This document shows, piece after piece, positions 219 to 54,998 of a stretch of DNA of 54,998 nt. Position numbers and translations under genes: made by a program. Positions within the stretch are counted from its first letter, which is position 1, and each line of letters begins with the position of its first letter. The stretch covers positions 1-54,998 of the forward strand of contig CAZVMT010000001.1 of NCBI GenBank assembly GCA_964628765.1, written 5' to 3'. The DNA comes from an uncultured Candidatus Bathyarchaeia archaeon (lineage in GTDB: Archaea > Thermoproteota > Bathyarchaeia > TCS64). The notes under the pieces are model-generated. The model was not told where the DNA came from. It saw only the letters and a list, made by a program, of their open reading frames with translations, and made no database searches.

Positions 219-295
219 GGGCCTGATAGGTATCGACGGGCGTTAAGGCGCGCAAGCGCAGCGCTCGGAACCGGGTTCGACTCCCGGCAGGTCCA
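219..295 (+). ncRNA. tmRNA-like tRNA-like domain (TLD) without an mRNA-like domain, or an alanine-type tRNA mimic
   Basis: Acceptor GGGCCUG/CAGGUCC with G3:U70 and A73. The 5' GAU-AGGUAUCGACGGG and 3' UCGGAA-CCGGGUUCGACUCCCGG-CAGGUCCA closely resemble both ends of E. coli tmRNA as I recall it. The middle is only a short capped hairpin (247-265). No canonical D or anticodon arm is present. Confidence 0.6.
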
Positions 296-298
296 CTA

Positions 299-447
299 GG
301 GGCATCCGCGTAAATGGAGATACGCAGAAGTCGTGTGTAATGTAGGTGGAAACTCTTATGGTAAGAGTTTGGCGGTTAGTTGGCGTTCAATACGTCCCCA
401 CCCCCACACGATAAAACCGTCACCCGGTTCGAATCCGGGATGCCCCA
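299..447 (+). ncRNA. 149-nt tRNA-like RNA with canonical acceptor, D and T arms but an 86-nt multi-helix domain in place of the anticodon arm
   Basis: Acceptor GGGGCAU (299-305)/AUGCCCC (440-446) plus A447. D arm GCGU-AAAUGGAGAU-ACGC (308-325). T arm CCCGG-UUCGAAU-CCGGG (423-439). Internal helices are 331-337/405-411, 345-349/398-402, a 9-bp hairpin at 350-370 and a hairpin at 382-396. Confidence 0.55.
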
Positions 448-843: not shown

Positions 844-936
844 TGTGTTGGCTCAAGACTGGCGGCACGTATCGCCCGTTTTGATACGCCGGGGCGCGGC
901 TCCTCCTCTCTGCGCCCCGGCTGCCCTGCTACCGTT

Positions 937-961
937 CGCCCGCACAGCGCGGGCGTTTTTT
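937..961 (+). terminator. Rho-independent terminator closing the RNA cluster
   Basis: CGCCCGC-acagc-GCGGGCG followed by T6. It is preceded by a 10-bp GC hairpin at 888-921. Confidence 0.8.
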
Positions 962-7792: not shown

Positions 7793-8148
7793 CGCGAGAT
7801 TACACCGACATGTTGTCTGGGCTTCTCGGCTGCTCAATATCAATGACGCCTCACAGCGAGTACCGAATCAGTATTGAGCGCGACATCTGGGGCCGTCCGG
7901 CGGTAACGCTCTGGCATCTGTTCCCGTTCGTGAATCACGGCAACGCTTCCCTGCTGCGTTGTCATGTGCCGCTCAAAGGTAGGAATACTACCTTTGAAGC
8001 AGCAAACGACGCATGGCATTTGCTGTCTCAGTGGTGGCAGCATGGCCCGACTGAGATGTTGATCGAGGCGTATGAACTGCGCCAGACGCAGGACTTTACA
8101 AAGCCTGCGTCAATCGGGTATGAACCACAGCAGCTACGGTTGCTGTAA
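7789..8148 (+). CDS. Hypothetical protein
   Basis: ATGA start/stop overlap with the upstream gene. Confidence 0.55.
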   Translation: MTRDYTDMLSGLLGCSISMTPHSEYRISIERDIWGRPAVTLWHLFPFVNHGNASLLRCHVPLKGRNTTFEAANDAWHLLSQWWQHGPTEMLIEAYELRQTQDFTKPASIGYEPQQLRLL

Positions 8149-8165
8149 TTCCACATTATGCGGAA
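8149..8165. promoter_or_regulatory. 17-bp palindromic motif TTCCRCA-N3-TGYGGAA, site 1
   Basis: ttccacattatgcggaa. The same 7-3-7 inverted repeat recurs at 12075, 43841 and 54264. Confidence 0.6.
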
Positions 8166-8168
8166 ATG

Positions 8169-8192
8169 GGGCGGGCAACCGCCCTTTTGTTT
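8169..8192 (+). terminator. Intrinsic terminator
   Basis: GGGCGG-GCAA-CCGCCC followed by TTTTGTTT. Confidence 0.7.
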
Positions 8193-12056: not shown

Positions 12057-12073
12057 GGCGGCTTCGGTCGCCC
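12056..12073 (+). terminator. UUCG-capped GC hairpin, second copy
   Basis: Identical 18-nt hairpin followed by TTT. Confidence 0.5.
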
Positions 12074-12074
12074 T

Positions 12075-12091
12075 TTCCACATATTGCGGAA
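12075..12091. promoter_or_regulatory. 17-bp palindromic motif, site 2
   Basis: ttccacatattgcggaa. Confidence 0.6.
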
Positions 12092-43492: not shown

Positions 43493-43840
43493 ATGTGGGA
43501 AAGTGTTGCAGTATTTTTAGAAAAGGCGATCGGGTTGCTGACCAGTCAGCGCACGATTACTACCGCGATTGGCGTGATTGTGATCGTTGTAGTTGCTCAG
43601 CAAGCGTTCGCCCTGATCGGCGGGTTCGAACCCTGGCAGGATGTTGACGAAGCCGGACTCGAACAGCAGATCGCCACCGTACTTGGTGCGATTGCGACTG
43701 TGCTGATCGCCTTGCAGAAGATCGTCGATCTGGTCAAAACACTGGTGATTAGTGTTGAGACTGCGCCGCCTTCGCTCAAATCCGACTGGAAAAACCGCGC
43801 CGTGAATGCTGTACTACTCGACGCAACGCACGATCGGTAA
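43493..43840 (+). CDS. Holin-like small membrane protein
   Basis: GGGAGG RBS, 2-3 hydrophobic helices and a charged C-terminus. Confidence 0.5.
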   Translation: MWESVAVFLEKAIGLLTSQRTITTAIGVIVIVVVAQQAFALIGGFEPWQDVDEAGLEQQIATVLGAIATVLIALQKIVDLVKTLVISVETAPPSLKSDWKNRAVNAVLLDATHDR

Positions 43841-43857
43841 TTCCGCAATATGTGGAA
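43841..43857. promoter_or_regulatory. 17-bp palindromic motif, site 3, followed by a UUCG-capped hairpin at 43858-43883
   Basis: ttccgcaatatgtggaa. Confidence 0.6.
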
Positions 43858-43917
43858 AGCGCCCCGGCTTCGGTTGGGGCGCTACGTAAACCTAGCCAGG
43901 GCAGGGGAGTCAGCAGC

Positions 43918-53396: not shown

Positions 53397-53445
53397 CAGT
53401 CCCTCACTCCTTGTTAAGCAAAGCGCCCCGCTGGTGATTGTGTGA

Positions 53446-53512
53446 TGTCTAGGCACACGAGTCCGGCGGAGCGCTATGGTCACAATCATACCTCGTTTAT
53501 CGTGCCTAGACA
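53446..53512. promoter_or_regulatory. Operator-like nested inverted repeats in the divergent control region
   Basis: tgtctaggcac (53446-53456) pairs with gtgcctagaca (53502-53512). gattgtg (53436-53442) pairs with cacaatc (53481-53487). Confidence 0.6.
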
Positions 53513-53513
53513 A
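53485..53513 (-). promoter_or_regulatory. Minus-strand promoter (TTGTCT-17-TATGAT) for the leftward operon
   Basis: Read from the reverse complement. The -35 overlaps the right operator half-site. Confidence 0.5.
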
Positions 53514-53539
53514 TATCAATATACACCACATGGCGCATA

Positions 53540-53568
53540 TTGTCAAACAAGCCGTGATAGTGTACACT
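53540..53568 (+). promoter_or_regulatory. Plus-strand promoter (TTGTCA-17-TACACT)
   Basis: Hexamers and spacing read directly. Confidence 0.5.
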
Positions 53569-53600
53569 GGTTTCAATATAACACACTAGGAGAATTCGAC

Positions 53601-53876
53601 GTGACCGACATCACCCTACCCCGCACGGTACCAATCGATCCACAGGTGCCGCCTGAATTCCAGCAGCAATACATTACCGTCACTGTGGCAGCGAAGGCCG
53701 CCGGTGTGTACAGGTCAACAATCAAGCGCCACCTGGGCAACGGCACACTCAGAGGCAAGAAAATGGCGACTCATTTATGGTACGTGAGTCGCACCAGTAA
53801 TGAAGGCGAATCGCCGCCCGGCCTCGATTGGTGGACGCCAGGAACATCAGGCAATCCAAACTGGATCAAAGAATAG
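53601..53876 (+). CDS. Small HTH DNA-binding protein (Cro/excisionase-like)
   Basis: AGGAG RBS before GTG 53601. Contains ITVTVAAKAAGVYRSTIKRHLGNGTLRG. Confidence 0.6.
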   Translation: MTDITLPRTVPIDPQVPPEFQQQYITVTVAAKAAGVYRSTIKRHLGNGTLRGKKMATHLWYVSRTSNEGESPPGLDWWTPGTSGNPNWIKE

Positions 53877-53899
53877 TACCAAGGTACCACGCCGCTCTC

Positions 53900-53928
53900 T
53901 TGACATTGTGGGCTAAAAAGCCTATGAT
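53900..53928 (+). promoter_or_regulatory. Near-consensus sigma70 promoter (TTGACA-17-TATGAT)
   Basis: Hexamers and spacing read directly. Confidence 0.7.
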
Positions 53929-54263
53929 GTAAGTATGAAGTGAGCGGAGCAATAGGAACTCACGAGAACCTTAACAACTGCACACAAGCATCCGCCACCG
54001 CCACAAAAACGCGCACCCAGGCCGGGCTACCGGCAAACAACACAGCGCGAACGGCACCGGCGACAAATGCCAGCGCAGCACATAAAAGGCAAAGCAACCA
54101 TCCACCGTAGTGAGAGCAGGACGGGGGAAAGCTGATGAGTATCCCGGCGAGGGATTACATGGAGATGTACATACATCGGCAAGGGGCATCAGGGCTTCGG
54201 CGCTGATGTTCCCACTGTACCCCAAAACAGGCGACCGGTGGAGAGATGGGACAAGCCTACCAA

Positions 54264-54280
54264 TTCCGCAATATGCGGAA
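54264..54280. promoter_or_regulatory. 17-bp palindromic motif, site 4 (perfect: TTCCGCA-ATA-TGCGGAA)
   Basis: ttccgcaatatgcggaa inside the candidate ncRNA. Confidence 0.6.
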
Positions 54281-54549
54281 ACCTGATCGGGAGAACCGAG
54301 GCGCTGGAAACAGCGACCGGGACCGGCAGACAGTAACGAATATTACGGGGACCGCAGCGGGCGATTTTTCTTCGAGGACTTGTCGCGGGGGCGCAACTCC
54401 CCCACCCCGTACAAGGATAGGCACTAAATACATCTGGGCTTTTCGCTGAAGGCGATCCCCCACATGATAATTACTGCCTCTCCGTACATGCATCGGCGGG
54501 CGTTTACCTATCGATTGATACTCGTCCGGATTCCCCACCGATGCAGACT

Positions 54550-54586
54550 GGCACCGCGCTACCCTGACGCGGTGCCTTTTCATTTA
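54550..54586 (+). terminator. Intrinsic terminator ending the long noncoding unit
   Basis: GGCACCGCG-9 nt-CGCGGTGCC followed by TTTTCATTT. Confidence 0.8.
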
Positions 54587-54599
54587 TAGAGGAGGCGAA

Positions 54600-54824
54600 A
54601 TGACAACAATGGAATTTGCTATTATCCTGTTTGGTATCGGCGGCTTTTTGTTCACCACCGTCTACTCAAACCACAACGAGCGGCTGGCGCAGCAGTATAT
54701 AAGGGAGCACCGCACATACAAAGGCCGTCCGCTCGACAACGACCTGATCGACATGTTGTGCGCCCAGGACGACGCCGACCGCGCCGACCGCGCCGCAATT
54801 GCGGAAATTTACGGAGCGTGGTAA
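54600..54824 (+). CDS. Small membrane protein (1 TM)
   Basis: GAGGAGG RBS. TM segment FAIILFGIGGFLFTTVY. Confidence 0.65.
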   Translation: MTTMEFAIILFGIGGFLFTTVYSNHNERLAQQYIREHRTYKGRPLDNDLIDMLCAQDDADRADRAAIAEIYGAW

Positions 54825-54998
54825 TGTACCTGAAACAACGTGAGGATCAGCGGCTCACCGAAGGCGCGGCGCTCGATCTGCTGCGTACCGTGCGGCGCTA
54901 TTGTTGGCACGCCGACATTTATTTAGCGGAGCGCACCGACGGCAAGCCTGCCAGTGAGTGGAGATTTTACGTAGCGCACAACAGCGCGTCACCGAAGT
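54824..54998 (+). CDS. 5' part of the 94-aa hypothetical protein that continues at 56..165 after removal of the overlap
   Basis: TAATG coupling to the upstream ORF. The frame is open to the window end and matches the frame of 1..165. Confidence 0.6.
   Translation, partial: MYLKQREDQRLTEGAALDLLRTVRRYCWHADIYLAERTDGKPASEWRFYVAHNSASPK
54944..54998. repeat. Second copy of the terminal overlap (same as 1-55)
   Basis: Identical to bases 1-55. Confidence 0.97.

Follow-up and report, generated by a model that had tools for sequence, protein, structure and literature searches.

The interval at 53877–54599 lies near the end of a 54,998-nt stretch of DNA, which was analysed in full and to which we refer as the window. 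The contig is phage-like and circularly assembled, the first and last ~55 nt of the window being identical, and it encodes a large terminase together with a DnaD/O-like replication initiator and a DnaB-like primase-helicase. The same sequence is found in Logan as a contig from SRR8556705 (20 kb compared, all identical), which therefore offers no usable strain variation. No close relatives of the phage were found among GenBank phages, either by blastn or by tblastn of the flanking proteins. Its nearest helicase relatives are 33–55% identical, and since those that have been binned belong to Chloroflexota MAGs (Dehalococcoidia, Anaerolineae, Thermoflexus), the phage host is probably also a member of the Chloroflexota.

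About 13% of the genome is intergenic, and the 723-nt gap at 53877–54599 is among its two largest gene-free gaps; the other is an RNA island that starts two small genes further on. The upstream neighbor encodes a 91-aa ORFan protein whose single other copy, on a 23-kb JGI contig, is identical except for the called start residue (V for M). Within 53440–53570 there is also a divergent early control region with back-to-back promoter-like sites (minus strand 53546–53518, 11/12 consensus positions; plus strand 53540–53568, 9/12), adjoined by an 11-nt perfect inverted repeat, TGTCTAGGCAC/GTGCCTAGACA (53446–53456/53502–53512), that resembles an operator pair. Downstream of the gap are genes for a 74-aa and a 94-aa protein, the latter running from 54824 to 110 across the circular junction. 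Both are strict ORFans, with self-matches only among 1.84 billion representative proteins. An island with a tRNA-Thr, a mini-tmRNA and a tRNA-like element begins ~230 nt past these two small ORFs, which bears out the first-pass annotation of this DNA, where the interval had been placed upstream of two small ORFs and a tRNA-like cluster on the circular map.

The island has several features of its own. The mini-tmRNA (window 219–298, plus strand, 80 nt) matches the Rfam tmRNA model from end to end with a score of 58.4 bits (gathering score 47), with the 308-nt middle that holds the pseudoknots and the tag ORF swapped for 15 nt. It keeps the acceptor stem with its G3:U70 pair and the T arm, its 3' end is CCACUA, and it was missed both by the default gathering scan and by ARAGORN. 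Elements of ~80 nt with only the tRNA-like domain of tmRNA also occur in or beside large tRNA arrays on unrelated IMG/VR phage contigs, at 54–76 bits, and a pattern scan for mini-tmRNAs gave 40 loci; the mini-tmRNA appears to be a recurrent element of phage tRNA islands. A second tRNA-like element (window 298–447, plus strand), called by neither ARAGORN nor Rfam, has the acceptor stem GGGGCAU/AUGCCCC and the T arm CCCGGUUCGAAUCCGGG with a ~100-nt insert between them. Between this element and tRNA-Thr, a 24-nt direct repeat, AGCCCGACCGATTGCGGGCGGCAA, at ~449–472 and ~648–671 encloses ~175 nt of ORF-free sequence. Further on (window 848–961, plus strand), a hairpin with an anti-Shine-Dalgarno-like loop, CUCCUCCUC, is followed by a strong terminator at 937–955; this segment gave sub-threshold matches to the CCUCCUCCC-motif sRNAs ar14 (30 bits) and CcsR1 (23.7 bits). 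Pistol ribozymes were seen in phage contigs that carry a mini-tmRNA and a tRNA island (L051 13302–13377, 69.6 bits; L055 1621–1716, 54.8 bits).

Table 1. Positions of features in and around the promoter-to-terminator unit, with copies of the palindrome and mini-tmRNA loci elsewhere
Feature	Position	Strand	Details
Near-consensus sigma-70-type promoter	53900–53928	+	TTGACA-17-TATGAT; 11/12 consensus positions
A/C-rich, U-poor, G-poor tract, largely unstructured	53960–54110	+	A 35%, C 37%, G 21%, T 6.6%
Three-way junction (predicted)	54129–54180	+	Outer helix GCUGAUG/CAUCGGC around two small hairpins; in every fold computed
UUCG-capped hairpin, 12 bp	54183–54212	+	10-bp helix with two G-U pairs, a G/G mismatch, 2 G-C pairs
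Palindrome	54264–54280		TTCCGCA-ATA-TGCGGAA; four genome copies; likely protein-binding DNA site
Two small adjoining hairpins	54287–54315	+	UCGG-GAGAA-CCGA (in MFE fold) and CGCUG-GAAA-CAGCG
CUUGU/ACAAG helix around G5/C5 hairpin	54379–54415	+	In sequence and MFE fold
Long irregular hairpin directly 5' of terminator	54489–54545	+	12-nt arms UGCAUCGGCGGG/CCCACCGAUGCA, 92% complementary
Intrinsic terminator	54550–54585	+	9-bp stem, 8 G-C pairs, 9-nt loop, UUUUCAUUU tail
Downstream gene (putatively gated)	54586–54824	+	RBS AGAGGAGG; 74-aa ORFan 54600–54824; N-terminal hydrophobic helix
Palindrome copies	8147–8166, 12074–12091, 43839–43858, 54262–54281		Motif AATTCCRCAWTATGYGGAAA
IMG/VR mini-tmRNA loci	L070 1467–1547, L053 5334–5413, L055 3956–4036, L051 10544–10624, L067 2315–2395, L076 5238–5319		

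Promoter, terminator and coding capacity

The gap contains a unit that runs from a promoter to a terminator, and both signals are present where the first-pass annotation had put them (Table 1). In the whole 55-kb window we counted six sites that match at least 11 of the 12 promoter consensus positions, where a rough estimate for random sequence is ~0.7; five of the six are intergenic, each ahead of a gene string. Because such near-consensus sites are rare and mostly intergenic, the phage apparently uses promoters of this type and the site at 53900–53928 is credible. Transcription would start at about 53934–53936. The strong intrinsic terminator, ~650 nt past the promoter, has a perfect stem (54550–54558/54568–54576) followed by TTTTCATTT. 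No plus-strand terminator of the genome has a longer perfect stem or a higher G-C count, though it shares both maxima, and the z-score of the hairpin fold is −5.7. It is unidirectional, since on the minus strand no T run follows the hairpin. Our automatic terminator scan skipped 54550–54576 solely through its 8-nt loop maximum.

The stretch 53877–54599 is non-coding by all the tests run. The gene caller of the Logan contig called no gene between 53876 and 54600. Codon usage was scored as log-odds trained on 24 long genes of the same genome, for which true-frame scores have a mean of 0.33 (sd 0.13, 5th percentile 0.10); values for the small flanking genes are 0.15–0.40, and every 60-codon window of the stretch scores 0.06 or less in all six frames. 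Stop codons of more than one kind interrupt every frame, with all three kinds in five of the six, so that stop-codon recoding opens no frame, and we rejected it. The longest plus-strand ORF (54246–54449) has its GGAG only 2 nt from the ATG, no ORF longer than 23 codons in the stretch has both a start codon and, at the right distance from it, a strong Shine-Dalgarno sequence, and strong Shine-Dalgarno-like pairing is confined to two ORFs, at 54135 (23 codons) and 54159 (15 codons). ORF translations of the stretch had no match in Pfam or PHROGs. Six of them also had none among the 1.84 billion representative proteins searched with phmmer, where the two flanking proteins, used as controls, matched themselves only. 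Gene calling, codon usage, Shine-Dalgarno spacing and protein searches thus all back the earlier statement that no credible ORF lies between promoter and terminator.

The 23-codon ORF at 54135–54206 (plus strand, MSIPARDYMEMYIHRQGASGLRR) has an SD-like GGGGGA upstream, with a pairing energy of −8.6 kcal/mol. It spans the predicted three-way junction and stops within the UUCG hairpin. Although it could be a leader peptide, it is probably there by chance.

It seems to us very improbable that the unit hides a protein-coding gene, be it small, leaderless, low-complexity or recoded. The SD-like duplex of ORF 54135 would suit such a gene. So would the A/C-rich tract, whose translation is a low-complexity T/A/N-rich peptide (a candidate 56-codon ORF, 53940–54110), and in an unrelated phage locus (L063) a sequence of similar A/C-richness codes for a small Q/N-rich protein. 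However, codon-usage scores are negative for every ORF, the mixture of stop kinds leaves recoding no frame to rescue, the lone ATG near the inferred transcription start (53936) opens an ORF of 2 codons, and neither the protein families nor the representative proteins yielded a match.

Composition, predicted fold and the palindrome

The segment 53960–54110 is the most T-poor and also the most A+C-rich (72%) 150-nt stretch of the genome, so that the C/A-rich, G-poor 5' third remarked on earlier is confirmed as a compositional extreme. The 5' 170 nt of the unit are predicted to be unstructured (fold z −1.2), and the A/C tract appears to resemble a Rho-loading (rut) site. A/C-rich tracts at other loci, considered as analogues, proved to be either protein-coding or strings of N.

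The plus strand of 53935–54586 has a minimum free energy of −241 kcal/mol vs −212 ± 5 in dinucleotide shuffles (z = −5.6), and the minus strand gives z −3.3. For 58 windows of equal length elsewhere in the genome the mean z is −0.74 (sd 1.25, minimum −3.66), and the plus-strand value of the unit lies beyond all of them. Removal of the terminator changes z to −3.3 on the plus strand and −2.5 on the minus strand, so part of the folding excess is due to the terminator. The clearest strand-specific signal comes from 54106–54300, with z −3.5 on the plus strand vs −0.4 on the minus strand; in this segment the three-way junction and the UUCG-capped hairpin make use of G-U pairs. Ensemble diversity and positional entropy are ~2 sd below those of the shuffles; a control from the tRNA island behaved similarly, and three coding controls were worse. 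Since long-range pairings vary between fold calculations, only the local helices can be trusted.

The helices that had been read by eye are all present in the sequence. The UUCG hairpin (54187–54208) is in the MFE fold and can be extended to 54183–54212 via two G-U pairs, which make it specific to the plus strand. The G5/C5 helix nested in CUUGU/ACAAG is likewise present in sequence and fold, and the arms of what had been described as a long-range helix, 54489–54496/54538–54545, extend to 54489–54500/54534–54545. The GAAA hairpin at 54302–54315 can be read in the sequence but is absent from the MFE fold. The broader proposal of a large structured RNA is supported in part: an ORF-free unit does lie by the tRNA-like island and has an excess of well-defined predicted plus-strand fold, but its 5' 170 nt are unstructured and the palindrome within it looks unlike an RNA helix. 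By these predictions the unit is moderately structured on its plus strand.

Such a fold would suit a ~645-nt transcript that is itself the product, a stand-alone large structured RNA acting in trans and functionally analogous to GOLLD and ROOL or to the stable RNAs of the T4 tRNA region. Its folded 3' domain and flexible A/C-rich arm would then bind or sequester a host factor or RNA, and the terminator would merely set its 3' end. The discreteness of the unit, from strong promoter to strong terminator, its place beyond all 58 background windows, its plus-strand-specific helices with G-U pairs, and a diversity and entropy as low as those of the tRNA-island control are all in line with this. On the other hand, z without the terminator (−3.3) is only ~2 sd from the genome background, and the long-range folds vary between calculations. 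We regard a stand-alone trans-acting RNA as possible, though doubtful, and as the chief rival of the leader reading given below.

The palindrome at 54264–54280 had been described as a perfect 17-bp copy; it is present but not fully perfect, with 7-bp arms around a 3-nt centre. It belongs to a 20-bp motif, AATTCCRCAWTATGYGGAAA, that occurs four times in the window vs 0.19 copies expected, and the three other copies (8149, 12075, 43841) directly abut terminator-type hairpins at gene junctions. Read as plus-strand RNA, two of the four copies have an A·C mismatch in the stem. This variation fits half-sites of the form TTCCRCA and would break an RNA stem, which points to a DNA site for a dimeric regulator and not to an RNA helix. 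The family is probably a DNA site of a phage regulator (a roadblock, stoperator or centromere-like site). A search of IMG/VR for the palindrome returned single, unrelated matches only.

The palindrome raises the question of whether the interval matters only as DNA. The unit might be a decayed moron, once a cassette of promoter, gene and terminator, or a spacer, kept in either case for the regulator palindrome and possibly for further sites in the DNA (operator, roadblock, partition or origin), with an RNA that has no function of its own. The layout of promoter, 650 nt and terminator is that of a moron, the palindromes, with their half-site variation and positions at gene junctions, behave as DNA sites, and the collections searched show no conservation of the unit, which is an orphan. 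Against this, there is no residual coding signal in any frame, no fragment resembles any of the 1.84 billion proteins searched, and the extreme A/C tract and strand-specific folding would not be expected of decayed coding sequence. The interval also contains no iterons, AT-rich unwinding region or tandem repeats. Phage genomes shed useless DNA fast, which counts further against a leftover, and we consider this explanation unlikely.

Relatives and known RNA families

A blastn search with the unit found no homologue among GenBank phages, and an exact 39-mer of the unit is absent from IMG/VR. Degenerate patterns back-translated from pseudo-proteins of the unit gave no homologue in IMG/VR, JGI metagenomes or GTDB genomes, and scans with the flanking proteins led to none either. 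At the loci of the helicase relatives, several of which cover the syntenic region, nhmmer, blastn and tblastx detected no DNA similarity to the unit, its flanks or the island. Nothing comparable to the unit was present in other phage tRNA islands with a mini-tmRNA, and a covariance model built on the single sequence 54125–54216 found only itself in 705 kb scanned. In one distant relative (GCA_043956535.1, L005 7794–8398), a ~600-nt ORF-free gap follows a 70-aa RHH gene at the syntenic position; the gap contains a tRNA-like T arm and acceptor stem and has no sequence similarity to the unit.

With Rfam 15, the whole window at gathering score gave tRNA-Thr only, and 53700–54998 at E ≤ 10 with permissive filters gave three chance-level matches to unrelated small families. 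Membership in GOLLD or ROOL, which the first-pass annotation had raised, is thereby excluded, as are HEARO, OLE, raiA and group I/II introns; T-box, 6S, RNase P and tmRNA also had no match at E ≤ 10 and were rejected as identities of the unit. Some local resemblances were rejected as well. UGGCACCGCG looks like a T-box core but is the 5' strand of the terminator, with no competing antiterminator and no Rfam match. A hammerhead-like CUGAUGA at 54130 has no GAAA core and no Rfam match. For a type III toxin-antitoxin RNA, TRF finds no repeat in 53900–54590, and the downstream proteins have no match to a defence family.

These results also bear on a product acting in trans. The unit has a length in the range of GOLLD and ROOL and, like them, is a neighbor of a phage tRNA island (PMC12286853). 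Yet it matches no Rfam family, even at E ≤ 10, and the collections searched hold no homologue and hence no sign of a conserved class. In our estimate it is improbable that the unit is the first known representative of a new RNA class, large, structured, phage-borne and associated with tRNA/mini-tmRNA islands. Such an RNA would be the functional GOLLD/ROOL counterpart in Chloroflexota phages, and its A/C-rich arm and folded domain would act in trans, for example to sequester a host RNA-binding or termination factor or to partner the tRNA-like RNAs. If trans-acting, it would be one more orphan among the few very large phage RNAs beside tRNA islands. All of these readings rest on a single sequence, and the present value of the unit is that of a well-defined candidate, not a discovery.

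Transcription past the terminator and comparison with known systems

The terminator ends 13 nt before the RBS of the 74-aa gene, which has a coding score of 0.40 and a Shine-Dalgarno pairing energy of −12 kcal/mol. No plus-strand promoter-like site of at least 9/12 separates the terminator from the start codon that follows. Further sites of that quality on the plus strand lie only at 54600–54628 (inside the 74-aa ORF), 2685 and 4192, in a scan that covered sigma-70-like sites; weak or non-sigma-70 promoters might still lie downstream. The two small genes (74 and 94 aa), the island as far as the 937–955 terminator and the genes up to ~4185 would therefore have to be transcribed through the terminator at the end of the unit. 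The same rightward gene string is broken by further intrinsic terminators at 937–955 and 8168–8185, so some mechanism of read-through is needed, and another terminator lies near 12057. The absence of a promoter downstream, which speaks against a purely stand-alone RNA, and the position of the terminator 13 nt from the RBS lead us to read the unit as a gate acting chiefly in cis.

We propose the following scheme. Host RNA polymerase would start at the promoter at 53900–53928 and make ~645 nt of non-coding RNA, with a single-stranded A/C-rich arm of ~150 nt followed by a multi-helix domain of ~440 nt. Most transcripts would end at the terminator (54550–54585), and only read-through or terminator-resistant polymerases would express what lies beyond: the two ORFan genes, the tRNA-like/mini-tmRNA/tRNA-Thr island and, past the 937–955 terminator, the early genes. 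The A/C-rich arm might be the loading site for a Rho-like termination or anti-termination factor, and a phage regulator may bind the palindrome as DNA. The first-pass annotation had mentioned a long antitermination leader as its alternative. That layout fits at least as well, but a helix that competes with the terminator is missing: neither prefix folds nor constrained folds contain an antiterminator, and we rejected a riboswitch-type mechanism for that reason. Regulation would thus need a protein or a polymerase-modifying RNA, and a phage factor, not refolding of the RNA, would determine how much read-through occurs.

The neighbors and the subset of the phage proteins that was scanned include nothing recognisable as an N- or Q-like protein. 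Matches resembling boxA, CCUUAACAA included, number 30 vs 28 expected, and we rejected an rrn- or lambda-type boxA as being at chance level; small GNRA-like hairpins occur and are not specific. Further points weigh against a gate. A plus-strand fold comparable to the tRNA-island control and a position by the island suit a stand-alone RNA equally well, and a leader of 650 nt would be very long next to that of lambda PR', which has 194 nt. Our tentative view, held with a little less than even confidence, is that the main role of the unit is that of a terminated early leader through which the small ORFs and the tRNA-like island are gated. Most probably a noncoding RNA is produced from the unit and at the same time controls whether transcription reaches that island.

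Among known systems, GOLLD and ROOL are phage or prophage RNAs found near tRNA islands, each with a disordered linker (PMC12286853). The unit is like them in being phage-borne and ORF-free, 500–800 nt long, next to a tRNA or tRNA-like island, and composed of a structured part and an unstructured segment (PMC12286853, PMC5737381). It differs in that it matches neither covariance model at E ≤ 10 and has no conserved family and no evidence of a pseudoknot or of oligomerisation. As a noncoding RNA beside phage tRNA genes, the unit also recalls stable RNA species 1 and 2 of T4. Those RNAs, of ~120–140 nt and unknown function, are processed from the tRNA transcript, whereas the unit has a promoter and a terminator of its own. 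With ToxIN-like type III toxin-antitoxin loci it shares the order of promoter, non-coding RNA, intrinsic terminator and read-through ORF; it lacks their tandem 34–36-nt repeats and has no PADLOC match, and the downstream protein is a 74-aa membrane-type ORFan, unlike the ToxN/AbiQ-like endoribonucleases.

The remaining parallels are with systems that control elongation. The put RNAs of HK022 and the EAR element act in cis, making RNA polymerase resistant to terminators, and the unit resembles them as a structured RNA that follows an early promoter and precedes several intrinsic terminators in one gene string. It is far longer than their ~70–120 nt, and no similarity to them was detected, as far as Rfam holds these elements. 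The leaders of lambda, PR'-6S RNA-tR' and nutR-tR1, likewise have a strong early or constitutive promoter, an ORF-free leader and a terminator right before a promoter-less operon, and the unit has a C/A-rich, rut-like tract upstream of its hairpins as they do. In contrast to them, the unit is ~3 times longer, no N or Q homologue was found among the phage proteins scanned and no significant nut, qut or boxA sequence in the unit, its regulation is inferred, and its host is probably a member of the Chloroflexota. If the unit is a terminated leader, an early operon and an RNA island would be gated in the manner of lambda in a phage lineage that has no cultured member and whose host is probably a member of the Chloroflexota, and a further read-through mechanism would be implied.
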